Source: a bacterium
Lineage (GTDB): Bacteria > Patescibacteriota > Patescibacteriia > JACQRZ01
DNA: 49,122 nt
NCBI GenBank assembly: GCA_023246095.1
Contig: JAHFJA010000006.1
Coordinates: forward strand, 1 to 49,122
Reading direction: 5' to 3'
Shown here: piece by piece, positions 3,406 to 23,516 of the stretch
How the letters are laid out: each line of letters starts with the position of its first letter
Position numbering within the stretch: the first letter of the stretch is position 1
Program-made: the position numbers and the translations under genes
Notes under the pieces: generated by a model
Databases searched by the model: none
Told to the model about the DNA's origin: nothing
What the model saw: the letters and a program-made list of their open reading frames with translations, nothing else

Positions 3406-4413
3406 ATGTTCGACCTTATTGAGGAATCACTTCCTGACGAGTCAAAAAATACTGGCGCTGCTCCGCTTCCTTCGTCACTCGAAGGTACGGTGTATACCAT
3501 GCCGTCTCATCGTCCTACAACATTATCTGCCTCTGGTAGTGAAACCAAAAAAAAGTCCGGTGGTTTAATACTGATCATTGTTGGTGTTGTCGTTGTTGTT
3601 TCGGCAACTGTTTTTCTTGTTTGGTGGGTTGTATTTCCACCAAATACTTCGACACCTACGCCGGTTGTAGAGCAACCTACCACACCAGTGAGTGAAGTAC
3701 CCGCGACTCCTGTAGTTGATAACACGCCCGTTACTCCTGCTACACCTCCTTCACCAATACCGGCCCCTACACCATCAGATGTTCCAACACCACCTCCCTC
3801 TGACACATTAAGTTATGTAAAGAGCCCAGATAGTGATGGCGACGATCTTACTGATGTTGAAGAGAAGCTTTTCAACACGGATCCTCAAAAGCCTGATACT
3901 GATGCAGATGGTTTTTTGGATGGTGCAGAGGTAAAATTTCTCTATGATCCAACAAAAGCTGGTGCTAAATTGGACACATCATCATCTGTGACTTTGTATA
4001 AAAACTCAGATTTTGCATATTCGCTATTATATCCATCTGCATGGGTCGTAAATTCCGTTGATAAAGGCAATAAAGATGTTATGTTTAGTTCAGCGACTGG
4101 TGAGTTTTTCAATCTGACCGTTCAGGACAATCCAGAAAAGCTGAGTGCTCTTGAATGGTACACTACAGTCCATAAGCCTAATGCTGACACTAAGTCCTTG
4201 CAGACTATGAAATATGATACATGGACGGGGGTAATGTCTGATGATGGCCTTGAAGTCTATATGACTGCAAACGACGATACGGGGACCGTAATCACTCCCT
4301 ATGTTTATGTTCTCACTTACGACATGGGCGGAAAAAAAGAAATGAATTTTGGTGCTGTTTTCCAGATGATGATCAGAAGTTTCTTGATCACTGATTTATC
4401 ATTTCAGAGGTAA
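3406..4413 (+). CDS. Paralogous membrane protein: Pro/Thr stalk, DxDxDG repeats, PsbP-like C-terminal domain
   Basis: TM segment; DSDGDDLTDVEE and DTDADGFLDGAE; YKNSDFAYSLLYPSAW motif. Confidence 0.75.
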   Translation: MFDLIEESLPDESKNTGAAPLPSSLEGTVYTMPSHRPTTLSASGSETKKKSGGLILIIVGVVVVVSATVFLVWWVVFPPNTSTPTPVVEQPTTPVSEVPATPVVDNTPVTPATPPSPIPAPTPSDVPTPPPSDTLSYVKSPDSDGDDLTDVEEKLFNTDPQKPDTDADGFLDGAEVKFLYDPTKAGAKLDTSSSVTLYKNSDFAYSLLYPSAWVVNSVDKGNKDVMFSSATGEFFNLTVQDNPEKLSALEWYTTVHKPNADTKSLQTMKYDTWTGVMSDDGLEVYMTANDDTGTVITPYVYVLTYDMGGKKEMNFGAVFQMMIRSFLITDLSFQR

Positions 4414-4847
4414 TGCTTCATTTTCTTATTGAAGAGGGAGCGTCAAACGTTCCTCAACTTCTTCAAAAACGCGCTTGGTATAACAAATACTATAATGCTT
4501 GTAATAAAATATTAGGGGCAAAGGCACCTCGCATTACGGTTACTGTCATACTAACGGGCGATGAACAAATCAAAAAACTCAATGCTCGTTACCGTAAATT
4601 ATCGAGGACGACAGATGTGCTATCATTTTATTACGGTGAGGATGGCATGACAGGGGAGGGAGAAGTATTCATTTCTGTACCTGTTGCGTTGAAGCAGGCG
4701 CGACGGTTTGAGCATTCACTCGAGAAAGAAATCGCACGTCTCGTGGTTCATGGTATTTTTCATGTGTATGGATATGATCATATCAAAACGGAAGAACGGC
4801 GACACATGAGAGCCCTTGAAAATGCCGCGCTTGCTCTTGTACCGTAA
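4413..4847 (+). CDS. ybeY: rRNA maturation endoribonuclease YbeY
   Basis: LNARYR, TDVLSF and HGIFHVYGYDH metal-binding motif. Confidence 0.93.
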   Translation: MLHFLIEEGASNVPQLLQKRAWYNKYYNACNKILGAKAPRITVTVILTGDEQIKKLNARYRKLSRTTDVLSFYYGEDGMTGEGEVFISVPVALKQARRFEHSLEKEIARLVVHGIFHVYGYDHIKTEERRHMRALENAALALVP

Positions 4848-12234: not shown

Positions 12235-12306
12235 GCCACTTTAGCTCAGTGGTAGAGCAACACTTTTGTAAAGTGAAGGTCCTGGGTTCGAATCCCAGAA
12301 GTGGCT
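12235..12306 (+). tRNA. tRNA-Thr(TGT)
   Basis: Acceptor stem GCCACTT/AAGTGGC, loop TTTGTAA, T arm CTGGG-TTCGAAT-CCCAG. CCA not encoded. Confidence 0.95.
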
Positions 12307-12369: not shown

Positions 12370-12525
12370 ATGTCACAAGATAATCTCATAAAAATGGAGT
12401 GCGGTAATTGTTCCCAGATAGGGTATTATACCTATAAGAACAAGAAAAAACTCAAGAACCGACTTGAGCTGAAGAAGTATTGCAAAACTTGCCGCGTCCA
12501 CCAGAACCACAAAGAGACCAAGTAA
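12370..12525 (+). CDS. rpmG: 50S ribosomal protein L33 (not in ORF track)
   Basis: Hand translation: MSQDNLIKMECGNCSQIGYYTYKNKKKLKNRLELKKYCKTCRVHQNHKETK, with two CxxC and RLELKKYC. Confidence 0.96.
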   Translation: MSQDNLIKMECGNCSQIGYYTYKNKKKLKNRLELKKYCKTCRVHQNHKETK

Positions 12526-12541: not shown

Positions 12542-12571
12542 ACAAAAACCTGCGTAACAGCGGGTTTTTGT
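12542..12571. terminator. Bidirectional terminator between rpmG and the recombinase
   Basis: ACAAAAACCTGC-gtaaca-GCGGGTTTTTGT between convergent genes. Confidence 0.75.
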
Positions 12572-12603
12572 GTTAAAGAGGAGGTGACTGTCGGGGGGGT
12601 TTC

Positions 12604-13416
12604 CTAAAGGGGGCTTCTTATGTTTTTTAGTATAGGGTTGGTTACTTTTGTGTATAGTTGGGTTGTTCTGATATTGGCGTGCCCCAGAAGCTCTTGTACG
12701 TATCGTACATCGACACCATTTTCCAAGAGGTGAGTAGCAAAGCTATGGCGCAAAGAATGAAATGTTGCTTCTTTTTGAATATTGGCTTTTTTCAGTGCAT
12801 GTTCAAATACTTTTTGCGCGGTTCTTTCGGTGAGTCGACCGCCACATTCGCTTGAAAATACATACTCGTCGAGCTGTTTATGCGAAATCTGATCAATTAT
12901 GACGGGGATTAATTTCTCAGGAAATACGGTAATGCGATCTTTATTGCCTTTTGCACCTTTAACGTGAATTGTCAGCTCGGAAAGATTGATATCCTTTACC
13001 TTCATCGCTGTTACTTCGCTAACGCGCAAACCTCCGGCGTAGGCAAGCGCAATCATTGTTTTGTGTTTTGTGTTAGGGATGACTCGTAGAATGGATTGAA
13101 TTTCATCGCGAGATAAGAAGATAGGGAGTTTACTGGGTGTCTTGGCAAACCGAATATCAAGCTTACTATTAAACTTGAGCACATTCCGACAGAAAAAATT
13201 TATCGCTTGAAGCTTTTGATTAACGCTTTGCGAGGCCATTCCTTGGTCTATTTTGGATAGTAAGTATTGCTTGATGAAGTCGATATCAACAGAATCGAGG
13301 TTACTTTGTTTGGAAGTTAAATATTCAGCCACACAGGCGGAATAGCTTTTGATTGTTTTGGGACTGTAATTACGCAGTCTTAGCTCATTTTCGAGCTTTG
13401 ATAAATAGACATTCAT
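12604..13416 (-). CDS. Tyrosine recombinase (IntI/XerD-like, SAM-like N-terminus, no IntI insertion), 270 aa
   Basis: LRLRNYSPKTIKSY N-terminus. Catalytic residues intact: GLRVSE, KGNKDR, HSLRHSFATHLLE, LLGH, TTQLY. Ends SPL like IntI proteins. Confidence 0.93.
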   Translation of the reverse strand: MNVYLSKLENELRLRNYSPKTIKSYSACVAEYLTSKQSNLDSVDIDFIKQYLLSKIDQGMASQSVNQKLQAINFFCRNVLKFNSKLDIRFAKTPSKLPIFLSRDEIQSILRVIPNTKHKTMIALAYAGGLRVSEVTAMKVKDINLSELTIHVKGAKGNKDRITVFPEKLIPVIIDQISHKQLDEYVFSSECGGRLTERTAQKVFEHALKKANIQKEATFHSLRHSFATHLLENGVDVRYVQELLGHANIRTTQLYTKVTNPILKNIRSPL

Positions 13417-13450
13417 GTATTTATGTATTACTCTTAACCTAAGAGAAATT

Positions 13451-13520
13451 ATACGAAATATTCGGGTAGTATACAATATCTCGTATGCTATATGTAAACA
13501 CTTCGGATATGGAAGAGTTA
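13451..13520. other. Candidate attI-like primary site
   Basis: ACTTCGGATATGGAAGAGTTA (13500-13520) matches only the right half of the downstream sites. It is preceded by hairpin ATACGAAATATT/AATATCTCGTAT. Confidence 0.45.
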
Positions 13521-13565
13521 TATGAAATGCCAAAAGGAAATAAGGTATTTGGCACATCATCTAAC
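13517..13565. repeat. Empty cassette: GTTA...TAAC inverted arms with a 13-nt loop
   Basis: GTTATATGAAATGCCAAA / TTTGGCACATCATCTAAC, 15 of 18 pairs. Confidence 0.7.
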
Positions 13566-14035
13566 ACGGGATATCCGACTCACAAGCACTCAGAATAAAA
13601 TTATTTTTTCAAATTCATATGAAGAAAGACAATCTAAACAGCAACCCAGAGTTATCGTGGACATTTCTTGATGGAAGTAAGAGAACAGCTGGAATTCTTG
13701 AAACTGTTGTCATTGGTAAAGGAGAATATTTGCCAGGGTGGAAATGGTCAACACACGCTGGTGTAATAACAGGCAAAGAATCAGAACGGCATGTTGGCTA
13801 TGTGCTTTCAGGTGAAATGATAATCAAAAATTCTAATGGTGATGAGATTATGGTTGGTCCTGGAGAAGCCTTCGAGGCAGACCCTGGACATGATGCGTGG
13901 GTTGTTGGAAACGTCCCTTGTGTTGCTTTGGATTTTACAGATTTAGGATTGAAAAAATAATTTTATTCTGAATGCCTGTTCATCCAAATTTGTCTTCGCT
14001 ACACTACGACAAACTTCGGATATCCTGATACGTTA
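13562..14035. repeat. attC-like site 1, carrying the cupin gene inside its loop
   Basis: TAAC-A-CGGGATATCCGA (13562-13578) ... TCGGATATCCTG-ATAC-GTTA (14016-14035). Inner 31-bp inverted repeat at 13582-13612/13949-13979. Confidence 0.75.
13619..13960 (+). CDS. Cupin-domain protein
   Basis: PGWKWSTH, HVGYVLSG and PGHDAWVVG motifs. Confidence 0.88.
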   Translation: MKKDNLNSNPELSWTFLDGSKRTAGILETVVIGKGEYLPGWKWSTHAGVITGKESERHVGYVLSGEMIIKNSNGDEIMVGPGEAFEADPGHDAWVVGNVPCVALDFTDLGLKK

Positions 14036-14204
14036 TACGCAATTCAAAAAATATTTTTCTAACGGAGAATAAGGAATGATAGGCTTTTAAAAGGAAATAA
14101 ATTTGTTTTTCTTTATTTATCGAGGGGGATAATTTGTGTTTCCCTCCACTTCGTTACAGAAAACGAATTATTTATAAATATTAATTATTAAAGATACTAG
14201 TATG
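14035..14204 (+). repeat. Cassette leader copy 1 (homologous to 15785-15957)
   Basis: Shared blocks ATACGCAATT.AAAAAATATTTTTCT, GATAGG, TAAATTTG.TTTT and CTTCG.TACA.AAA.GAAT.ATTT, up to the ATG. Confidence 0.8.
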
Positions 14205-14795
14205 AGAAAAATAACCGTTCTAACAATGATTACATTGGATGGAGTCATGCAAGCACCTGGCGGATCCAAAGAGGATACCGCAGAGGGTTTTAAATATGGC
14301 GGCTGGTCTACGCCGTATATGGATGAAGCGTATGGTAAAGTTGCAGCAGAAGAAATGAAACCAGCAGAATATCTTTTGGGCAGAACAACATTTGAGATTT
14401 TTGCCAGATACTGGCCAGAACATGAAAATGGATGGCCAGGTATCAATAATGGTACGAAATATGTCTTGAGTGGGACTATGAAAAATTCAGATTGGAAAAA
14501 TACCGTTTTTCTCACAAGTCTGGCTGATATCGAAAAGTTAAAAAATTCAGAAGGTCCCGACATACAAGTATGGGGCAGCAGTAAACTCGTTCAACTGTTG
14601 CTTAAGAATGATTTAGTGGACGAACTTCGACTCAAAATTCACCCATTGACAATTGGCGAAGGAAAAAAATTGTTTGGCGATGGCACGATTCCGGCAGCAT
14701 TTGCCTTAATAGAGAGTTCGGTTACACCAAGCGGTGTGATTATTGCCCATTACAAACGAGCTGGAGAAGTCAAGACTGGCACCGTTGGAGATTAA
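14202..14795 (+). CDS. Dihydrofolate reductase-like / RibD C-terminal domain protein
   Basis: TLDGVMQAPG, LLGRTT, GSSKLVQLLL..DLVDE and GEGKKLF motifs. Confidence 0.9.
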   Translation: MRKITVLTMITLDGVMQAPGGSKEDTAEGFKYGGWSTPYMDEAYGKVAAEEMKPAEYLLGRTTFEIFARYWPEHENGWPGINNGTKYVLSGTMKNSDWKNTVFLTSLADIEKLKNSEGPDIQVWGSSKLVQLLLKNDLVDELRLKIHPLTIGEGKKLFGDGTIPAAFALIESSVTPSGVIIAHYKRAGEVKTGTVGD

Positions 14796-14821
14796 AGAGA
14801 AAAGAATTTGACGCAAAAAAA

Positions 14822-14882
14822 TTGAAAAATGAAATTCACCCCTGACCCCTCTTTCATTTTTCAAAACGGAAAAAACAAATTT
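14822..14882 (+). repeat. Cassette trailer copy 1 (homologous to 17150-17210)
   Basis: TTGAAAAATGAAATTCACCCCT.ACC.CTCTTTC.T.TTTCAAA..GGAAAAAA, containing a 13-bp hairpin. Confidence 0.85.
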
Positions 14883-14938
14883 CATACAAATACAAAGAAA
14901 AGTATGGATTACAAAGTCACGGAAAAGTATACTACATA

Positions 14939-15026
14939 TAACAAAGGATATGAGGTTACGAAGCCTTACGACTTCTCCACTCAAATTGCTCCCTATATTC
15001 GCAACTTCTCATATCCTTAAACGTTA
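14939..15026. repeat. attC-like site 2 (88 bp)
   Basis: TAAC-A-AAGGATATGAG-GTTACGAA ... TTCGCAAC-TT-CTCATATCCTT-AAAC-GTTA. Confidence 0.8.
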
Positions 15027-15103
15027 TCGGAAATAGCAAAAATCTTTCCTTATAGTTTAATATTTTGGATTTTTTTTATTTTGAATGCAAAAATTTTAAA
15101 AAT

Positions 15104-15715
15104 ATGGGCAACGAAATAGTAAGCGCGTTCGTACTGGGTCTAATAGGCGGTGTGATTCCCGGCCCAGTTTTGGCGGCCACATTCACGGAAATTTTACAGT
15201 CTGGCATGTTAAAAAGCATGCGGATAATTCTATGGGCAATGTTGACCGAAACCGTTGTTGCCCTAATAAGTTTATTGGCACTATCATCGATGAATTTTTC
15301 TGAGAGCTTTTTCCAGGGTCTTTCGGTAGTCGGGGCCGCCATCCTAATTTGGATTTCGACTTCGATTTGGAAAGTCCACAAAATCGACACCGAAGAAAAA
15401 GTCCATTTCAGTCTGGGTAAAATTTCGGCGATGATTCTGGCTAATGGTGTGCTGTGGACTTTCTGGATCACCGTGTGTGTGCCGAAAGCGATTATGTTGA
15501 ATAATAAGGCGGCTTTCGGCAATTACTTGTTCTTGCTACTCGTCGAAATCGGATGGCTCATTTCCACTGTTCTGGTTGCAGTGATATTTTCAAGATTCAG
15601 AAAAATTCTTTCCAACCCAAAAGTCGTGCCAATTATTTTTAAAATTTTTGCTCTTGTATTCGTGTATTTCGCTGTCGATATGGTTTATAGAAGTATCAGG
15701 TTTTTCCTGACCTAA
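15104..15715 (+). CDS. LysE/RhtB-family exporter
   Basis: GLIGGVIPGP motif and multiple TM helices. Enclosed by ~60-bp inverted arms 15023-15083/15716-15777. Confidence 0.8.
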   Translation: MGNEIVSAFVLGLIGGVIPGPVLAATFTEILQSGMLKSMRIILWAMLTETVVALISLLALSSMNFSESFFQGLSVVGAAILIWISTSIWKVHKIDTEEKVHFSLGKISAMILANGVLWTFWITVCVPKAIMLNNKAAFGNYLFLLLVEIGWLISTVLVAVIFSRFRKILSNPKVVPIIFKIFALVFVYFAVDMVYRSIRFFLT

Positions 15716-15784
15716 CAAGATAAAAAAATTCCAAAATCAATAGTAAGGAAGAAAGATTTTTTGCTACATCAGATAACACGCTAT

Positions 15785-15957
15785 ATACGCAATTTAAAAA
15801 ATATTTTTCTTAAGGTAAAATGAAGATAGGGTTTCAAAATATGGATAAATTTGATTTTTTCTTTTATTGTAAATGGGAATAATATTGTATTTTCTTCTGC
15901 TTCGCTACAAAAATGAATCATTTTATGAACTTTTAATTGTTAAGGGATATTATTATG
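15785..15957 (+). repeat. Cassette leader copy 2, fused to a collapsed site at 15774-15790
   Basis: TAAC-A-CGCTAT runs directly into ATACGCAATT. The hairpin body and GTT are missing. Confidence 0.75.
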
Positions 15958-16854
15958 GAAAACAATATGCAAAAAATAACGCCAAACCTATGGTTTTACG
16001 GAAACGCTAAAGAAGCCGCGGATTTTTATACCTCTGTTTTTTCCGATGCCAAAATCGTCGCAACTTCGCACTATCCAAAGAGTAAAGAAGAGGGGCTCGC
16101 CGACTTCCAGCTAAATATGGCCAGTAAAGTATTGACGGTTGACTTCGACGTTATGGATTTTCGTTTCGTGGCTATCAATGCAGGACCTGAGTTTACTCCT
16201 AATCCTTCTATATCATTCTTTATCACACTGGATTCCAAAGAAGAAATTGACGAGTTGTGGGGAAAGCTTGGAGATGGCGGAAAAGAATTGATGCCGCTCT
16301 CAAAGTATCCATTTAGCGAGTACTACGGCTGGTTGCAAGATAAGTACAATGTGAGCTGGCAGCTTATTTTGAACAATCCCGAGGGCGACCAGCGACCGAA
16401 AGTGATGCCTTCATTTCTCTTTACGCAAGACAAAAGTGGAAAAGCAAAGGAAGCAAGAGATTTCTATCTCTCAGTTTTCAAGGATTCAAAAGAAGGTATT
16501 ACCGCGCTTTTCGAAGAAGATGCCCAAGTTGGTCAAAAGAAGGGAGACGTAATGTTTTCTGATTTCATGCTTGAAAATGTGTGGCTGGCTGCCATGGATG
16601 GTGGAAACCCACACGAATTTACCTTCAATGAAGGAGTATCACTTTCGATTAGTTGCAAAGACCAAGACGAAATTGACTATTACTGGGAGAAGCTCACAGC
16701 GGACGGCGGTGAGGAAAGTGTTTGTGGCTGGCTCAAAGACAAATATGGCGTAATTTGGCAAGTCGTGCCTGCGAATATGGAAGAGCTTATGAAGCGGTCG
16801 AATGCATTCAAAATCATGATGCAGCAAAAGAAAATAATTATTGCCGAGTATTAA
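15955..16854 (+). CDS. Two-domain VOC/PhnB-like (3-demethylubiquinone-9 methyltransferase family) protein
   Basis: KITPNLWF..AKEAADFY, YGWLQDKYNVSWQL and CGWLKDKYGVIWQV motifs. Confidence 0.9.
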   Translation: MENNMQKITPNLWFYGNAKEAADFYTSVFSDAKIVATSHYPKSKEEGLADFQLNMASKVLTVDFDVMDFRFVAINAGPEFTPNPSISFFITLDSKEEIDELWGKLGDGGKELMPLSKYPFSEYYGWLQDKYNVSWQLILNNPEGDQRPKVMPSFLFTQDKSGKAKEARDFYLSVFKDSKEGITALFEEDAQVGQKKGDVMFSDFMLENVWLAAMDGGNPHEFTFNEGVSLSISCKDQDEIDYYWEKLTADGGEESVCGWLKDKYGVIWQVVPANMEELMKRSNAFKIMMQQKKIIIAEY

Positions 16855-16857
16855 GAA

Positions 16858-17145
16858 ATGAGCCATATGAATGAAAAGGAAATTGCAACCGGCTTTGTTC
16901 ACAAAGTACCTGCTGATTTAAAGGAAATCTTAACTTCTAATCCTGATGTGATCGAAAGATGGAACAAGTTAACTCCTGTTGCACGCAACGAGTGGATATG
17001 TTGGGTTACGATTGTCAAAAAACCAGAAACAAGAAAAGAGCATCTTGTTCGTTTGCAAGAAGATATTCTTATAGGGAAAAAGAGGCCATGTTGTTGGCCT
17101 GGTTGTCCTCATCGCAGAGAAAGTGCGAAAAAATGGTTTAAATAA
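16858..17145 (+). CDS. YdeI/OmpD-associated domain protein
   Basis: VPADL, WNKLTPVARNEWICWV..KKPETR and RPCCWPGCPHR motifs. Confidence 0.85.
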   Translation: MSHMNEKEIATGFVHKVPADLKEILTSNPDVIERWNKLTPVARNEWICWVTIVKKPETRKEHLVRLQEDILIGKKRPCCWPGCPHRRESAKKWFK

Positions 17146-17149
17146 GAAT

Positions 17150-17274
17150 TTGAAAAATGAAATTCACCCCTAACCTCTCTTTCGTGTTTCAAATAGGAAA
17201 AAATCAAATATATTATTAACGAGGAAAGCCTATCTGATAAACGAAATAGAAAATATTTTGATGAAATCACGTAT
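17150..17274 (+). repeat. Cassette trailer copy 2, truncated inside the expected TAAC core
   Basis: Homologous to 14822-14882 and complementary to leader 2 in several blocks. Ends AATCACGTAT followed by CATG. Confidence 0.75.
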
Positions 17275-17275
17275 C

Positions 17276-17968
17276 ATGGGAAATAACAAACTAATTCAAC
17301 TGAAAGATTCTCTTGTGGGCGCATTGTCAAAGCATGGATCCGTTGAGGAGATTGCTCTTTTTGGCTCGCTGGTTAAAGGCGATGTTGATCAGTATTCTGA
17401 TATAGATATGATTGTGGCCATCTCTTCACCGATAAACGGATTAGAGGCATTGGGACACTTTGGAGAGGTACGGTATTATCGATCGTTTAGTAGCGTAAAA
17501 TTTCCTTCAGGACGGTACTGGATGAAGGGTTACTCCGTATTCAATAAAATTGATATAAGTTTTCATACCCTTGATGAGTTTGAGAAAATTGTACTTCATG
17601 GTGATCCTGAAGGATATACAACACCGCCGTTCAATATTGAGTGGAAAGCAAATCGGGTCACCAGTGCAAAGTCCATCTCGACAAACATTGATATGGCGAG
17701 TCCATATATATTTTCCGAAGCAGAGGACAAGATAGGCAAGCTTGTGTATCGTTTGTCTCGTTCGCTTAAGTCTGTATATAGAAACGAATCCCCAGAACAT
17801 GATCCCCATGACGTTTATTCAGAATTGAGCTCATTATGGGCTATTCATTCAAACTCAAAGTGGGTTGGTGGTGCCTTGGATAGTCTTGTGACAGAAATAT
17901 TGTCTTTGGGTTCTGAGAGTGATACTGTAGTGTTACATAATGTGACGCCACTAAACAAATATGAATGA
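17276..17968 (+). CDS. Nucleotidyltransferase-domain protein (Pol-beta/MNT-like)
   Basis: LFGSLVKG..DQYSDID (GS...DxD) motif. Confidence 0.82.
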   Translation: MGNNKLIQLKDSLVGALSKHGSVEEIALFGSLVKGDVDQYSDIDMIVAISSPINGLEALGHFGEVRYYRSFSSVKFPSGRYWMKGYSVFNKIDISFHTLDEFEKIVLHGDPEGYTTPPFNIEWKANRVTSAKSISTNIDMASPYIFSEAEDKIGKLVYRLSRSLKSVYRNESPEHDPHDVYSELSSLWAIHSNSKWVGGALDSLVTEILSLGSESDTVVLHNVTPLNKYE

Positions 17969-18215
17969 AATAAAACGCAAATGGGATTTACTCCCAAAAA
18001 CAAAAAGACAGTCTTGTATTGACGAAATCGTTACTTTCTTCAAACAAAAACGAGACGAGGAAATTGGCATAATTGCAGCGGAAGATATTTTAGATTTTTT
18101 CTTGCAAGATATCGGAACAGACATATATAATAAAGGCATAGAAGATTCAAAAGAACTGCTAAAAAAACAGTTTGAGAATTTGGAAATAGATCTAGATCTT
18201 TTACTGAATAAATAG
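17961..18215 (+). CDS. DUF2164-family small protein
   Basis: FFKQKRDEEIGIIAAEDILDFF...IYNKGIED pattern. Confidence 0.8.
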   Translation: MNEIKRKWDLLPKTKRQSCIDEIVTFFKQKRDEEIGIIAAEDILDFFLQDIGTDIYNKGIEDSKELLKKQFENLEIDLDLLLNK

Positions 18216-18270
18216 TTTTGTTCAGTCATTACGAGAAGACGTACTGGGTGATTTTTCTTAACCACAGAAT

Positions 18271-18687
18271 ATGAAACAAAAAATCAAAAGAGGTGTTGCG
18301 ATTGTTGCAATTTATAATGGCAAGATTGTTTTATTAAAACAAATGCGACCTCCGCACAAAGTACCATTTTTAAATATTGTAATGGGTAGTATTAAAAATA
18401 ATGAAACACCAGAGCAAGCAGCAAAAAGAGAATGTATTGAAGAAATTGGTTTGGTGCCAAAAAAGCTGGTGAAGATTGGCAGAATAATCCAATTACCCGG
18501 AAGTGCAAATATCGAAACGGTTATTTTTTACTCTGAATTTCAGGAAAAGCCAAGTGTTCCTAAAAACATTTCCGAACCCATAATTGGTTTGGGGTTTTAT
18601 TCTGAGGAAGAGATAAAAAAGCTAATTAGCAAAGAAAAGATTATAGAGTCAACAACACTTTTGGCTCTACTATTGATAAAAAAATAA
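18271..18687 (+). CDS. NUDIX hydrolase
   Basis: GSIKNNETPEQAAKRECIEEIG Nudix box. Confidence 0.88.
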   Translation: MKQKIKRGVAIVAIYNGKIVLLKQMRPPHKVPFLNIVMGSIKNNETPEQAAKRECIEEIGLVPKKLVKIGRIIQLPGSANIETVIFYSEFQEKPSVPKNISEPIIGLGFYSEEEIKKLISKEKIIESTTLLALLLIKK

Positions 18688-18709
18688 ATCTGCGAAATTA
18701 AGAAAATCT

Positions 18710-19471
18710 ATGACCTACCAATGGGAAAAAACTGACAACCCTGACAAGATCAGATTTCGAAAAGAATTCGATCTTGATTCTGTTGTAGAAAAAGGGAAAA
18801 GTGAGTTTGAAAAATTACTCTTGTTAAGGTCTTGGGTACACAATATTTTACCTCCTGGCACCCCCTCGAGAGACTATTCTGAATTGGGGGTATTCGAAAT
18901 ACTGAGCGATGCAAAGAAAGGACTTCAGTTTTGGTGCACTCAATATAATCAAGTCTTTGTTCAAAGCGCAGTTGCTTTAGATTTTTATGCAAGAAAACTG
19001 GGAGTCGATTCTAAAGATCCGTCAAAAGACATGCATCACGGAGTTGCTGATATTTGGTCAAACGAATTTCAAAAATGGTATGTTGTAGACACGCAACATA
19101 ACCAACATTATGAAAAGGATGGTGAACCTCTGAATGTGTTGGAAATAAGAAACGAATATCTTAAAGATGGAGGTCAAAAAGTTAAAGGAATAATTGGAAA
19201 CTACGAAAAAGTCCTTGAATATAAGAAGGATTCTACTGGATACGACTCTCCTTCAAATTACTTTTGGTTTTTTATCCCTTTAAGAAATAACTTTTTTGAG
19301 GATCCTCGTATATACCATTCTCAAGCGCTACTCTGGGTAGATGAATTTAATAAAGATATGAAATGGGTGAGGAAGGGTGGAATTGAGGATCATCCTATGT
19401 ATGAATCCCAATTTGTTGAGACGTCTGATATTAATGAATGTTTCCCGGATATGGATAACATGAATAAGTAA
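18710..19471 (+). CDS. Transglutaminase-like (Cys-His-Asp) protein
   Basis: WCTQY, HGVADIWSNEFQKWYVVD. Confidence 0.72.
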   Translation: MTYQWEKTDNPDKIRFRKEFDLDSVVEKGKSEFEKLLLLRSWVHNILPPGTPSRDYSELGVFEILSDAKKGLQFWCTQYNQVFVQSAVALDFYARKLGVDSKDPSKDMHHGVADIWSNEFQKWYVVDTQHNQHYEKDGEPLNVLEIRNEYLKDGGQKVKGIIGNYEKVLEYKKDSTGYDSPSNYFWFFIPLRNNFFEDPRIYHSQALLWVDEFNKDMKWVRKGGIEDHPMYESQFVETSDINECFPDMDNMNK

Positions 19472-19477
19472 CCAAAA

Positions 19478-20128
19478 ATGGCCATGAGCGAACTAGAAAA
19501 ATTTATGCCACCATTTGAACAGTCACAACCAGAAAAAATACTGGCCTCGTTTGATGGAGAGCAGAAGACAGTACAGGATCAAGTCAAACAAGAGATACAA
19601 AACTGCCTTGGTATTGAGCAAAAAGATATTGAGAGAATAGAACTACTAAAGGTTGAAAATCTTCCAGAACACTATCGAGCGCAATTCGAGATTCTTCATG
19701 ACGAGCGGTTGAATGGAGTTACTATCGCAGTAGTACCCGATGAGTTATGGGTCAAAGGAGATCAGCCGTCTGAATCGAGTGCTGATAAACAGCTTATATT
19801 GATCAAGAAAAGCTATTTTGAAACACAAGAAAATCCTGACGAAATTGCTTGGCTATGCCATGAATTAGCGCACTGTCAAAATTTCCTTGATTCCCAGTCA
19901 CCTGAAGAATATCAAGATAACATGCAAAAATTGGCTTTTGAAGACTTGAACACTGGGTTTCCATACCCCAATAATCTCGTTGAAAAGTTCACATTCACCA
20001 GACAGTTTCAATATCTAAAAGAACAAGGTAAAAGTAGGGATGAGGTCCTAGAAATGTTGAGCCATGATTACAAAGAAAAAGACATCCCGTTTTTTAGTCG
20101 GCTGTTGGATGCTGTGTATGGGGAATAA
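19478..20128 (+). CDS. Hypothetical protein with HExxH zincin motif
   Basis: LCHELAHCQ, later NLVE. Start could be the ATG at 19505. Confidence 0.6.
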   Translation: MAMSELEKFMPPFEQSQPEKILASFDGEQKTVQDQVKQEIQNCLGIEQKDIERIELLKVENLPEHYRAQFEILHDERLNGVTIAVVPDELWVKGDQPSESSADKQLILIKKSYFETQENPDEIAWLCHELAHCQNFLDSQSPEEYQDNMQKLAFEDLNTGFPYPNNLVEKFTFTRQFQYLKEQGKSRDEVLEMLSHDYKEKDIPFFSRLLDAVYGE

Positions 20129-20136
20129 ACTCGATA

Positions 20137-20567
20137 TGAAAAAACTAAAATGCAATATTGGTGAATATGGCATCATCGTAAATCAACAAGGAGAATTGTT
20201 AATTTTGAAATTGGCAGCTAGCAAGAAGTACCCAAAGGAGACATGGATGTTACCGGGCGGTCGATTGAATATTGATGACCAACCAGAAGAAGGGCTCCAG
20301 CGTGAAATCAGCGAAGAGACAGGATTAAAGGTGAAAGTTATCAGCCCATGCCACGTTGCGCGATGGGGTTCAGAGAAACCGCCAAAATATGGGGTATTCT
20401 TTCTCTGTAAATTAGTCGGTAAGCAAACAGTGAAAATAAGTAATGAGCATGTTGAAAACAAATGGATACAATTTAGCGACATCGAAAAAATATCTTGGCA
20501 CAATGTGAATAGTAAAATAGCCATCAAAAAATCAAGAACTCTCATGAGTGGGGTTTGTGATGTATAA
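20137..20567 (+). CDS. NUDIX hydrolase
   Basis: WMLPGGRLNIDDQPEEGLQREISEETGL. Confidence 0.9.
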
Positions 20568-20582
20568 TGACCAGTCTTTCAT

Positions 20583-21215
20583 ATGTCAATAAATCTAAAA
20601 ATCGAATTTGGCATAGAGTACGAACTAAAAAGGGTAAACTATACTCTTGCAAAATTAGATTGGTTCGATTCGCAAGGATATAGGACGAGATTACCGGAAG
20701 GAATAACCAAAGAATCTTCGGAAGACGAAATCAAACATCAAATCGCGAATGAATTTGATGAAAAGAAATATAAAAAATTGGCTGATCAAATTGGCGCTGA
20801 TTTTGCGACGGTAAGCACTCAACTATTTAAAACGTTAAGAGAAGTATTTGGACAGGATATTCCCGAAACGTTCTGCGTCTATCTCACCACTTACGGTGTC
20901 GGTGGATCATATAACCTTCCTAATACGGTCATTTTTAACATAAACAACACAAGAGGCTACAAAACAATCATTCACGAAATTATTCATCTGCTTATTGAGA
21001 ACCAAATTATAAAATATAACGTTCAACACTGGGAAAAAGAAAGAATCGTTGATTTGATTTTGAATTCTAAGGAGTTGAGCTTTTTAGAGTATACTGAGTG
21101 GCAGAACAGCTATAATGGTGTTGAAAAATATATAGATGATTTATTCAATAGTTACTTCTTCGAGGATCCGGAAAACTTTTTTTCAAAAATACAACATGCA
21201 CGCATCTTTGCTTAA
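20583..21215 (+). CDS. Hypothetical protein with HExxH motif
   Basis: YGVGGSY, IIHEIIHL, HWEKE. Confidence 0.6.
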   Translation: MSINLKIEFGIEYELKRVNYTLAKLDWFDSQGYRTRLPEGITKESSEDEIKHQIANEFDEKKYKKLADQIGADFATVSTQLFKTLREVFGQDIPETFCVYLTTYGVGGSYNLPNTVIFNINNTRGYKTIIHEIIHLLIENQIIKYNVQHWEKERIVDLILNSKELSFLEYTEWQNSYNGVEKYIDDLFNSYFFEDPENFFSKIQHARIFA

Positions 21216-21218
21216 TCA

Positions 21219-21930
21219 AATGGAACAGGAAATTAACCAAACGTTAAAATCTTTTTTTGGTAAAAATTTAGTTTCATTATTGGTAGAGGGAAGCTATGGT
21301 ACATATGACATTATCGAGGGATACAGTGATTATGATCTTTGTGCTTTGGTGAAAGATGTTAGCAAAACGCCAGACGTCGATTTAGGCGATTTGTCAAAAA
21401 AATATTCCATTGATATCAAATGTTCAGTAAAGTCGTATAAAGATTTCCAAAATAGAGTTAAGAATAGTAACAAATCCTCCAGGTTTATTGATAATCTGTG
21501 GCTTGTCAAAGCAAAAAAGCAGGCGCGGGTCTTGGTCGGGAAAAATGTACTCAACCAAATACCGAGCATAAAGGAACTCATCAAAAGAGATATTGGCTGT
21601 GAACTAAGGGCAGATTATTATTATGCCACAAATCTAAATCCAGAATGGAATATATTTAGGCGAGAACCACAAAAATGGGTTAATTATATCATTAACATGA
21701 GTAATGACCTCTTGTTAAGTAAAGGCGTTATCACAAAAAAGGCAGATATTCCGGCAATGTTAGAAAAGCACTGTCCCGAATTCAAAGGGGTCGCGTACGT
21801 CAAAGAAGCACTTTATTTGCGAAAAACAAAGAAGGTTTTACACTTAACAAAAATAGAGAAAAATCAGCTAAAAAAGACCTTAGGCTTGTTTTTGGAGGAT
21901 TATAAGTTGTATACTTTCGGTGTTAAATGA
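21219..21930 (+). CDS. Nucleotidyltransferase-like protein
   Basis: VEGSYG......YSDYDL (GS...DxD) motif. Confidence 0.7.
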
Positions 21931-21965
21931 TCATACTCAATATGCCAAACCTCACAATTAAATAG

Positions 21966-22754
21966 ATGTCACAAAATACCAACAAACCTATATTGTCCTT
22001 TCCTTACCATGACCCCGCAGGGAAATTTAATGACTACATACGCCAGTCATTACCAAGATTGAAGGAAATTTTCTCGCATATTTGTATTAGTGCAACTCCG
22101 TCAACGTACGAGATAAATAAAGAGTTTGTCGATTTTTTGGAAAAAGAAGGCTGTCTAGTGTACAGAAATGTTGAAAATAGCAGTATAGGCGATCACTACA
22201 GAAACGCACTGCAGTTGGCGGTGGATATCGAGGGTGACAATAAAATATTCTTCAGTTTTATTGACCGGCTAGTATATATTTTAAACACCGATGTGCTGGA
22301 TCAGTTCACAGAAGATATGCAAACGAACTTTATTGACGTAGTTCTATACGAACGAAGCGAAAAAGCTTGGCAGACACACCCTGCGAACTATAGAGAGATA
22401 GAACAAACGGTAAATAAATTGGGGAGTTTTCTCATAGGTGAAGAAGTTGAATTGGGGACATGCGGATTTTCTATATATTCAGATATTGCAAGACAGATTT
22501 TACCGCAATCAATTGCCGATTCCTATTCGGCGGGGACAGAGTGGATTTTACTTATATATCTGTTAGGGATAAAACCAGCAATAATAAAGGTTGATTGGTT
22601 ATCCTGGGAAGACCCGTTCGTTGAGAAAATTTCGCCACAACAGCTCAAAGTCGAGCGGGAACAGGATAGGAATGAATATATCAAGCGTTTGGAAATGAAT
22701 ATTCCGTTCATAAATTTGCTTGTTCAAAAAAGATTTTACGGATTATTGAAATAG
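21966..22754 (+). CDS. Hypothetical protein (possibly GT-A-like fold)
   Basis: 262-aa ORF with PYHDP, GDHYRNAL, FIDRL and LSWEDP. The fold assignment is only a guess. Confidence 0.55.
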   Translation: MSQNTNKPILSFPYHDPAGKFNDYIRQSLPRLKEIFSHICISATPSTYEINKEFVDFLEKEGCLVYRNVENSSIGDHYRNALQLAVDIEGDNKIFFSFIDRLVYILNTDVLDQFTEDMQTNFIDVVLYERSEKAWQTHPANYREIEQTVNKLGSFLIGEEVELGTCGFSIYSDIARQILPQSIADSYSAGTEWILLIYLLGIKPAIIKVDWLSWEDPFVEKISPQQLKVEREQDRNEYIKRLEMNIPFINLLVQKRFYGLLK

Positions 22755-22764
22755 GGGCGGCATC

Positions 22765-22793
22765 TTGACTCAAACAGCTCAAAGTGGTAGCCT
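22765..22793 (+). promoter_or_regulatory. Putative promoter of uppS
   Basis: TTGACT-17 nt-TAGCCT with TGn. Confidence 0.45.
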
Positions 22794-22823
22794 GATCGAA
22801 TCCTATTAGTTTAAATATTACGT

Positions 22824-23516
22824 ATGGAAAACGAAACGCTACCAAAACATATTGGCATAATTATGGACGGAAATCGCCGTTGGGCGAAGAATAACGATCT
22901 CCCTACACTTGAAGGGCATGCAGAAGGGGAAAGAACGTTGTCCGATATTGTTGATCATTGTAAAAAACGAGATATTAAAGTATTGACGGTTTTTGCGTTT
23001 TCTACGGAAAACTGGAAGAGGACTCCCGATGAGGTAAAATACCTGCTCGATTTATTTTCAAAATTAATTCATGATCGAGCGGAGCGATTAATCCAGGAGA
23101 AGGTGAAAGTTCAGTTTATTGGCGATCTCAGCGGATTTTCACCTATACTTCGCAAAGAGATGCTTGATCTTATGGAACAGACAAAAGATCATACAGTCTT
23201 AACGTTCAACCTCGCGGTAAATTATGGAGGTCGCGCAGAGATACTGAATGCAATACGCCGGATCGATGAAGAGGGTATTGATATGAACACCTTGACGGAA
23301 GAAGTTTTCTCAAACTACCTGTACACCGCAGGATTGCCCGATCCTGATCTTGTTATCCGAACGTCAGGAGAACAGCGTCTTTCAAATTTTTTAACATGGC
23401 AGAGCGTCTATAGTGAACTGTATTTTATTGATATTCACTGGCCTGATTTCACACCAGAAGAACTCGACAAAGCAATCGAAGCTTATTCTCTCCGCCAACG
23501 TCGTTTTGGTAAATAA
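22824..23516 (+). CDS. uppS: Undecaprenyl diphosphate synthase
   Basis: IMDGNRRW, FSTENWKR, NYGGR and IRTSGEQRLSNF motifs. Confidence 0.97.
   Translation: MENETLPKHIGIIMDGNRRWAKNNDLPTLEGHAEGERTLSDIVDHCKKRDIKVLTVFAFSTENWKRTPDEVKYLLDLFSKLIHDRAERLIQEKVKVQFIGDLSGFSPILRKEMLDLMEQTKDHTVLTFNLAVNYGGRAEILNAIRRIDEEGIDMNTLTEEVFSNYLYTAGLPDPDLVIRTSGEQRLSNFLTWQSVYSELYFIDIHWPDFTPEELDKAIEAYSLRQRRFGK

Follow-up and report, generated by a model that had tools for sequence, protein, structure and literature searches.

Integron biology takes the domain that is specific to the IntI integrase as the key to folded, single-stranded cassette sites, and software detects integrons via this domain. A review listing 14 integron-bearing phyla does not include the Patescibacteria (PMC8618304), while the paper describing IntegronFinder 2.0 leaves the phylum unmentioned and reports almost no complete integrons in Firmicutes. 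In addition, passages of an archaeal integron study report 539 attC sites and only six IntI proteins (PMC9668308), and in a permafrost study 97.4% of the contigs with 'integron-type' recombinases were not complete integrons according to IntegronFinder. No description of integrons or cassette arrays in Patescibacteria, also known as the candidate phyla radiation (CPR), was found among open-licence papers and preprints, although supplementary survey tables could list such cases; supplements aside, the same literature contained no description of integrases that lack the IntI domain and are associated with attC-like arrays. A second relevant system is rAID-1 of Bacteroidales, which, in the published passages on its layout, consists of an XerD-like tyrosine recombinase and an array of short, co-oriented genes with low guanine-plus-cytosine (GC) content and conserved intergenic motifs. 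In these passages the arrays are called 'reminiscent of integrons' and are defined by a recombinase that shares at least 44% identity with the B. fragilis reference, at least two co-directional genes downstream, an array GC of at most 41%, and orphan immunity genes. The present study concerns contig JAHFJA010000006.1 (C39; 49,122 nucleotides [nt], analysed in full and referred to as the window) of a patescibacterial genome (G000; 0.99 Mb, which is in keeping with the phylum; 40 contigs, 94.8% complete), in which one minus-strand tyrosine recombinase and fourteen plus-strand open reading frames (ORFs) with unrelated predicted functions lie between the core genes rpmG and uppS. We consider it likely that this locus is an integron-like gene-cassette platform with a recombinase that lacks the IntI domain and with sites that have their own architecture.

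A preliminary description, made from the sequence alone, had placed an intact recombinase and 14 co-oriented, divergently transcribed ORFs in this interval, and all of them were found at the positions given. Like an integron, the locus has a divergent tyrosine recombinase with a simple site by its 5' end, and co-oriented, mostly single-ORF cassettes ending in imperfect inverted repeats with ...AAC and GTT... boxes. Further similarities are the covariation that preserves site structure, the greater stability of the bottom strand, the complementarity of the left box to the start of its own cassette, and cassettes that are common to several genomes with breaks at GTT. In contrast to integrons, no IntI-specific domain is present in the window recombinase, whose score falls short of the IntI cut-off, one window site encloses its own gene, and many cassettes share conserved 5' and 3' modules.

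The open frame of the recombinase extends over 12604-13560 (318 amino acids [aa]), and homologues of 270-271 aa begin at the methionine at 13416. The 120 closest database proteins, which are mostly 270-273 aa long (range 266-298) and align from this methionine, are named XerD, integrase or tyrosine-type recombinase, never integron integrase. All of the catalytic residues are present (R131, K156/K159, H220, R223, H246 and Y255) and PF00589 matches with an E value of 1e-43. The closest relative in the species collection comes from a Candidatus Wolfebacteria genome (74% identity). The top curated model, NF040815 ('site-specific tyrosine recombinase/integron integrase'), scores 215.2 bits with the window protein against a cut-off of 220, which is exceeded by the Wolfebacteria copy and by all but one of the long forms tested (see below). 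The IntI model TIGR02249, the second-best NCBIfam match, aligns in two stretches with 201.7 bits compared to its cut-off of 265 and leaves model positions 180-237 unmatched, and PRK15417 scores 122 compared to a cut-off of 435. Residues 183-242 of IntI4 (2a3v; approximately 59 residues) face only query residues 227-243 (16 residues), and class 1 IntI1 has 311 aa opposite 266 query residues, making it approximately 45 aa longer. Because of the comparisons with TIGR02249, IntI4 and IntI1, the IntI-specific insertion is considered missing; on this point, and in expecting no IntI match, the preliminary description was correct.

In length, domain layout and lack of an insertion, the window protein equals the 'Cand' subgroup of XerA/NF040815 recombinases as portrayed in passages on that subgroup. 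There, 'Cand' recombinases are described as Xer-related (PMC8138268), whereas the window family is accessory, patchy and array-linked, with a separate recombinase in the Xer role. The family was identified in 25 of 61 related genomes, sometimes in 2 copies, unlike the nearly universal single-copy gene expected for Xer/dif resolution of chromosome dimers; the widely conserved gene is a different recombinase. A second, Xer-like recombinase (32% identity to the window recombinase) is encoded in G000 itself, and Xer-like matches (31-41% identity) occur in many relatives, including some without the window family. The CPR Xer proteins form a separate clade with support of 100/100 in a tree of 50 proteins. 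The single IntI1 in this tree is placed among the integron-like recombinases, but its branch is long and weakly supported (88/72); therefore, no further conclusion is drawn from its position. Judged by these sequence comparisons, the window recombinase is an accessory gene and not the housekeeping Xer. A homologue from Candidatus Gracilibacteria (L073, 9971-10804), which is accompanied by a site array, has in-frame TGA codons at conserved glycines, as expected of the alternative code of that lineage.

A scan of both strands of the entire 49-kb window for TAAC...GTTA boxes with an adjacent stem returned 13 candidates per strand, and only 13562-14035 (site 1) and 14939-15026 (site 2) had stems of 11-12 bp. 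These two sites have identical 1/4-nt spacer geometry, and the identical site grammar was observed beside recombinase homologues of other genomes. Both sites, as well as a right-half copy by the recombinase, had been noted previously; the two sites were recovered by the scan and by covariance models, and the half copy by the models. The earlier description of the sites as hairpins had to be abandoned, since the sites fold as three-way junctions rather than simple hairpins. From the outside inward, a site is composed of a TAAC/GTTA box, a 1/4-nt asymmetric loop, a perfect outer stem of 11-13 bp in which pairing but not sequence is kept, two inner hairpins surrounding the conserved core CCCAtATTTGCC...GGCAAAC, and a 3-nt (A/T)TC bulge, with a total length of 78 to 474 nt. 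Canonical attC sites, in contrast, have short R and L boxes, an unpaired central spacer and single extrahelical bases. The longest window site is exceptional in that its first inner hairpin, with a 31-nt stem that is 94% complementary (13582-13612 with 13949-13979), encloses the entire cupin ORF.

Two covariance models, R1 (built from seven sites) and R2, were run on the window with filters off. Site 2 (14933-15034) was matched at 78.4 bits with an E value of 7e-16 by R1 and at 4e-17 by R2, the right half of site 1 at 7e-5, and the recombinase-proximal half-site region (13443-13528) at approximately 0.04. The collapsed copy proposed at 15774 can be seen by eye, its left box ...CAGATAAC-ACG running straight into the start of the next cassette; its model E value is 9, which is at noise level. 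With filters off, R2 found nothing at E values up to 10 in the class 1 integron of R100, which holds one canonical attC only. The attI-like site lies approximately 100 nt upstream of the recombinase start. Of 26 loci searched with a 26-nt pattern (an ATA-containing stretch followed by GTT(A/G)nnnnAAAT), 14 have a conserved attI-like motif ending in GTTAnnnGAAAT, located 50-157 nt upstream of the recombinase start; the upstream sequence available is shorter than 150 nt in some of the 26.

Several properties of the sites are consistent with recombination of a folded strand. In an alignment of 34 sites fitted to the model, paired cells make up 93.5%, and both sides have changed in 11 of the 13 pairs of the outer stem; the covariation score was not reached in any of 500 shuffles, and slid controls paired at 27-40%. 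The bottom strand folds more stably in 32 of the 34 sites (mean -23.0 vs -20.0 kcal/mol). Left-box complementarity is informative because a crossover inside GTT predicts it: the 7 nt left of AAC in one site complement the 7 nt after GTT in the preceding site at a mean of 5.40 of 7 positions in 62 consecutive pairs (19 perfect), compared to 3.67 of 7 in 290 non-consecutive control pairs (5 perfect). All three pairs in the window are complementary at 5 of 7 positions, two as determined by script and that of the decayed site by eye.

Movement of single cassettes is suggested by their recurrence in other genomes. The cupin cassette is found with 90% nt identity over its full length (94% aa for the ORF) in G030 (L032), a member of another family whose recombinase is only 56% identical to that of the window. 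High similarity sets in exactly at GTTA and gives way to weak similarity of the leader type past the second GTTA, and the cassette follows the attI-like site here and a different site in G030. Contigs of four sequencing runs were compared over 12600-16000, and the RibD_C cassette was identified in those of runs X2 and X4, from two other studies, where it extends from the GTTA at 14031/14032 to approximately 14872-14882 with 24-26 differences; these contigs cover the RibD_C gene and the downstream D1 module, with site 2 outside their coverage. At 14031/14032 exactly, they diverge into sequences resembling other site ends. As far as these alignments indicate, the cassettes are individually mobile.

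The preliminary description had expected homologous recombinases to carry such sites, and a covariance-model scan of their flanks found them in the same relative orientation. All 28 of the R1 matches in these flanks, a set in which some loci overlap and a few matches are duplicated, lie 5' of the recombinase and on the other strand from it, and no match was found in six Xer control loci. R1 identified 44 matches in 80 loci of the species collection, including 29 of the CPR type (upstream, opposite strand) and 15 from other phyla located downstream of, and co-directional with, longer recombinases. Among the 61 related genomes, 22 contain both recombinase and sites, 3 only the recombinase, 8 only sites, and 28 neither. 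Two of the three recombinase-only copies lie 136-242 nt from a contig end. A contig end is found within 460 nt on the array side of 14 of 26 recombinase copies in relatives, as would be the case if assemblies tend to break at arrays. Ten arrays were examined for the content of their inter-site segments. Those of 234-1250 bp contain a single ORF, located on the array strand in all but one case, and several longer ones contain at least two ORFs; no array-strand ORF is present in a pair of 73-nt gaps or in the first segment of L033 (157 nt). The back-to-back sites 73 nt apart at L033:2198-2270 and 4371-4443, in the G026 array, represent ORF-less cassettes. A set of 21 same-strand sites over 43 kb was observed on a 456-kb contig (G042:C1:227932-270978, L134-L136). 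Based on their sequence organisation, the arrays of Patescibacteria show a working kind of system and not a chance arrangement.

Outside the Patescibacteria, recombinases that are approximately 40% identical to the window protein and carry approximately 100 additional aa at the N-terminus precede co-directional arrays of identical grammar. Such arrays contain 11 sites in Flavobacterium difficile, 9 in Desulfitobacterium sp. Sab5, 5 each in a Bacillota and a Spirochaetia genome, 3 in Saccharibacillus kuerlensis and 2 in Thermodesulfobacterium. The Bacteroidota recombinases are approximately 350-430 aa long and 35-40% identical to the window protein, from which they differ by the N-terminal extension. 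A recombinase homologue was identified in 32 of 81 sampled Bacteroidales genomes; on two long contigs, the CPR-derived model found 8 (G098) and 5 (G092) sites downstream of the recombinase, and the contig breaks at the array in 7 of 10 fetched regions. Five DPANN archaeal loci with approximately 40%-identical recombinases (L094, L110, L113, L118 and L124) had no R2 match at E values up to 0.01. On a Flagellimonas marinaquae plasmid (L133, NZ_CP092416, 9874-12792), the gene upstream of a short-form recombinase that is annotated as xerA ('site-specific tyrosine recombinase/integron integrase') belongs to the dihydrofolate-reductase family and is flanked by two weak opposite-strand sites (E values of 0.012 and 0.019). 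With erm(F) in between and an adjacent Tn3-family transposase, this locus looks like a mobilised version.

The XerD-like recombinase and the co-oriented, low-GC gene array of the window (0.336-0.390 in nine of ten 1-kb intervals) are shared with rAID-1. The two differ in layout, with genes co-directional and downstream in rAID-1 but divergent and upstream in the window, and in cargo, which in the window is metabolic, export-related, NUDIX-type or without assigned function, no immunity type being recognised by Pfam or NCBIfam and OmdA carrying the only protection-type name. Because the Bacteroidales arrays have identical grammar, this kind of system is partly known already. The rAID resemblance claimed in the preliminary description was therefore well founded, and the system extends beyond the CPR, since other phyla also carry arrays. 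Compared through the published layout of rAID-1, the family of systems spans several phyla and probably includes rAID-1. On balance, we lean slightly towards a second, cross-phylum integron lineage, in which XerA-like recombinases whose IntI domain was lost or never existed would act on three-way-junction sites with a long, bulged stem; it would be present in approximately four of ten sampled Patescibacteria relatives and, with an inverted layout and an N-terminally extended recombinase, in Bacteroidota (including rAID-1), Bacillota, Spirochaetota and Thermodesulfobacteriota.

By analogy with integrons, excision and integration would be carried out by the recombinase: the bottom strand of a site would fold, the recombinase would cut within GTT, site-by-site recombination would excise cassettes, and these would be inserted at the attI-like site adjoining the recombinase gene. 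There are several potential alternatives to this reading. The TAAC/GTTA boxes, the attI by the integrase, the cassette rule and the bottom-strand bias would all match an ordinary integron with standard attC sites and a true IntI whose extra domain was lost or went unscored, and both the rank of TIGR02249 among the NCBIfam matches and the position of IntI1 among these recombinases in the tree, albeit as a single long branch, point in the same direction. However, the defining insertion is absent, the TIGR02249 score remains below its cut-off, the site geometry appears unlike that of canonical attC, R2 finds no match to the one canonical attC of the R100 integron, and the closest proteins never bear the name integron integrase, leaving this explanation with a small chance of being correct. 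It is barely credible that the gene encodes a housekeeping Xer whose target is a neighbouring dif-like site, with the hairpins being terminators, structured RNAs or repeats resembling miniature inverted-repeat transposable elements (MITEs). The best NCBIfam model is indeed of the XerA type, the hairpins lie 3' of ORFs, and some Xer systems keep dif beside the gene. Nevertheless, the Xer role appears to be taken by the separate recombinase of G000 and many relatives, compared to which the window family is patchy. The sites lack a T-run, and no Rfam family matches at the sites (12-24 kb, E values up to 1; the sole real match is a tRNA). In 32 of 34 cases their antisense strand folds more stably, the reverse of the pattern for an mRNA element; terminators or MITEs would not be expected to follow the cassette rule or to produce cassette identity bounded by GTT, and the segment contains no transposase (Pfam scan of the window proteins).

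It is also possible, though we hold it to be unlikely, that the locus belongs to an integron-like family but is an inactive copy, and that the 10-kb segment is simply an island gained by horizontal transfer, with the copy in it by chance. No more than two sites are intact, one has collapsed and cassette 4 is without a site; the distal 5.5 kb is site-less, the whole segment corresponds to one indel relative to G001, and a model search of the remainder of G000 yielded no other site. In contrast to what is expected of a fossil, the reading frame and catalytic residues of the recombinase are intact, the attI-like site and two well-formed sites have been kept, and the first cassette begins exactly at the attI-like crossover. 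Returning to the platform reading, several observations weigh against it. The IntI-specific domain is described as necessary for integron recombination in passages of two papers (PMC9668308; PMC8138268), and the action of a domain-less recombinase on folded sites is therefore unproven. The window has no significant model match beyond its two intact sites, and neither R1 nor R2 finds a site in the distal region (15.9-22.75 kb). The 61 genomes are kin, so that the co-occurrence counts are non-independent and serve as a description rather than a test. Eight genomes have sites and, with this query, no recombinase; one of them is G042, where no homologue was found within 222-282 kb or elsewhere in the genome. 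The covariation alignment, being fitted to the model, favours pairing. Finally, contigs of X1, the probable source run, show no joint at GTTA, although contigs drop rare variants. The proposal of an integron-like capture system with a non-IntI recombinase and its own site grammar has nonetheless survived every test run.

If the cross-phylum lineage exists, the IntI domain is no prerequisite for recombining folded cassette sites, and many 'integrase-less' cassette arrays in metagenomes would have an unrecognised integrase. With a domain-less recombinase family firmly linked to arrays that follow all the cassette rules, both the definition of integrons and the search tools derived from it would become wider. 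Patescibacteria, whose genomes are near 1 Mb, would possess a dedicated gene-capture device, which bears on how reduced genomes gain accessory functions, and the rAID clusters of Bacteroidales would be linked to a mechanism. The question is open to bench tests in cultured carriers, namely Flavobacterium difficile KDG-16, Desulfitobacterium sp. Sab5 and Saccharibacillus kuerlensis DSM 22868. In addition, structure-specific sites with a long, designable stem could interest builders of recombination tools.

The platform in the window is small, with two intact cassettes, a LysE cassette with a decayed site, a fourth unit with flanking modules only, and a 5.5-kb site-less block (Table 1). The 14-ORF array of the preliminary description therefore stands in part: cassettes 1-3 are demonstrable and probably also cassette 4, these being delimited by sites or modules, while the nine distal ORFs are without sites. 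Exactly at the GTTA crossover begins a conserved leader of 150-170 nt, which is found in front of differing genes in six genomes with 70-86% identity. It has many invariant columns and a motif resembling the second inner hairpin of the sites, and could be a cassette-borne promoter, a 5' untranslated region, or a decayed ORF-less cassette. A promoter scan found 13 promoter-like sites compared to 11.0 ± 3.0 in shuffles, which is no excess. The second conserved module, D1, lies between the 3' end of cassette genes and the site. After 14875, the X1 and X2 contigs run on into the type of tail found at 17204; therefore, 'leader - gene - D1' is a recurring cassette frame, with 14875 as a breakpoint.

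Table 1. Features of the rpmG-uppS interval and its flanks (window coordinates), with copies of the two cassette modules in other loci.
Feature	Position	Strand	Remarks
tRNA gene	12235-12306		Just upstream of rpmG; Rfam
rpmG	12370-12525		Left core flank
Tyrosine recombinase, XerA/IntI-like	12604-13416	-	270 aa; start at 13416 from homologue alignment
attI-like simple site	13503-13528	+	Right half of a cassette site; GTTA at 13517-13520, then nnnGAAAT
Cassette 1 (cupin)	13518-14032	+	515 bp; at attI-like site
Site 1	13562-14035	+	474 nt; TAAC/GTTA box, 12-bp outer stem
Cupin-domain ORF	13619-13960	+	113 aa; inside site 1; Cupin_2 E 1.3e-5, below curated cut-off
Cassette 2	14033-15023	+	Leader, RibD_C ORF, D1 module, site 2
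Leader, cassette 2	14033-14201	+	
RibD_C/dihydrofolate-reductase-family ORF	14202-14795	+	
D1 module, cassette 2	14816-14875	+	
Doubtful ORF	14829-15020		63 aa
Site 2	14939-15026	+	88 nt; best-formed in window; three-way junction, 11-bp outer stem
Cassette 3	15024-15783	+	Ends in decayed site
LysE-family exporter ORF	15065-15715	+	Likely ATG at 15104
Decayed ('collapsed') site	15764-15793	+	GTTA gone; read by eye
Probable cassette 4	15783-17257	+	No intact site
Second leader copy, cassette 4	15783-15936	+	
Double 3-dmu-9_3-mt/PhnB-like ORF	15937-16854	+	
OmdA/YdeI ORF	16858-17145	+	
D1 module with tail, cassette 4	17144-17257	+	
Distal block	17258-22754	+	Nine ORFs, tightly packed, partly overlapping or abutting; no sites
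uppS	22824-23516		Right core flank
Leader copies elsewhere	L052:80-259, L058:60-234, L034:2070-2244, L022:2562-2740, L042:4842-5040		
D1 copies elsewhere	L034:59-168, L045:8880-8938, L073:8425-8487, L043:9-63		

The fourteen co-oriented ORFs span 13619 to 22754 and include cupin, RibD_C, LysE, double 3-dmu-9_3-mt/PhnB-like, OmdA, nucleotidyltransferase, DUF2164 and two NUDIX families, while 5 of the 14 have no Pfam family above its curated cut-off. When all window ORFs were compared by tblastn with every fetched locus, only the cupin and OmdA ORFs were matched; L041 and L050 each have a homologue of OmdA (68-72% aa) on the array side of the recombinase, and no homologues of the distal ORFs were found. 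The distal block contains the nucleotidyltransferase, the DUF2164 and both NUDIX ORFs, a 264-aa ORF with only a weak CoiA_nuc match below cut-off, and four ORFs of 253, 216, 210 and 262 aa without a Pfam match at E values up to 0.01. It may represent a large, old cassette or a separate acquisition. The one interval between 13 and 23 kb that exceeds the low GC range given above is 16-17 kb (0.426), and most flanking 1-kb intervals are at 0.40-0.46, whereas 11-12 kb and 38-39 kb are at 0.38.

As anticipated in the preliminary description, relatives differ between rpmG and uppS. The two genes are adjacent in G001, of the same genus, where window positions 12574-22832 (10.26 kb) have no counterpart; the junction alignment has a short T(T)TAAA-like overlap only, which is too short to interpret as a target duplication. 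In G002, also of the same genus, the interval (L126, G002:C5:20500-36000) holds unrelated genes, namely a type IV pilus cluster (T2SSE, T2SSF and prepilins), a PAS histidine kinase, two response regulators, a polyprenyl synthetase and a DsbD/thioredoxin-like protein, and it contains no sites; it was rejected as a variable array and is regarded as a change in synteny. In the window, a terminator-like hairpin after rpmG (12543-12570) forms the left edge of the 10.26-kb segment.

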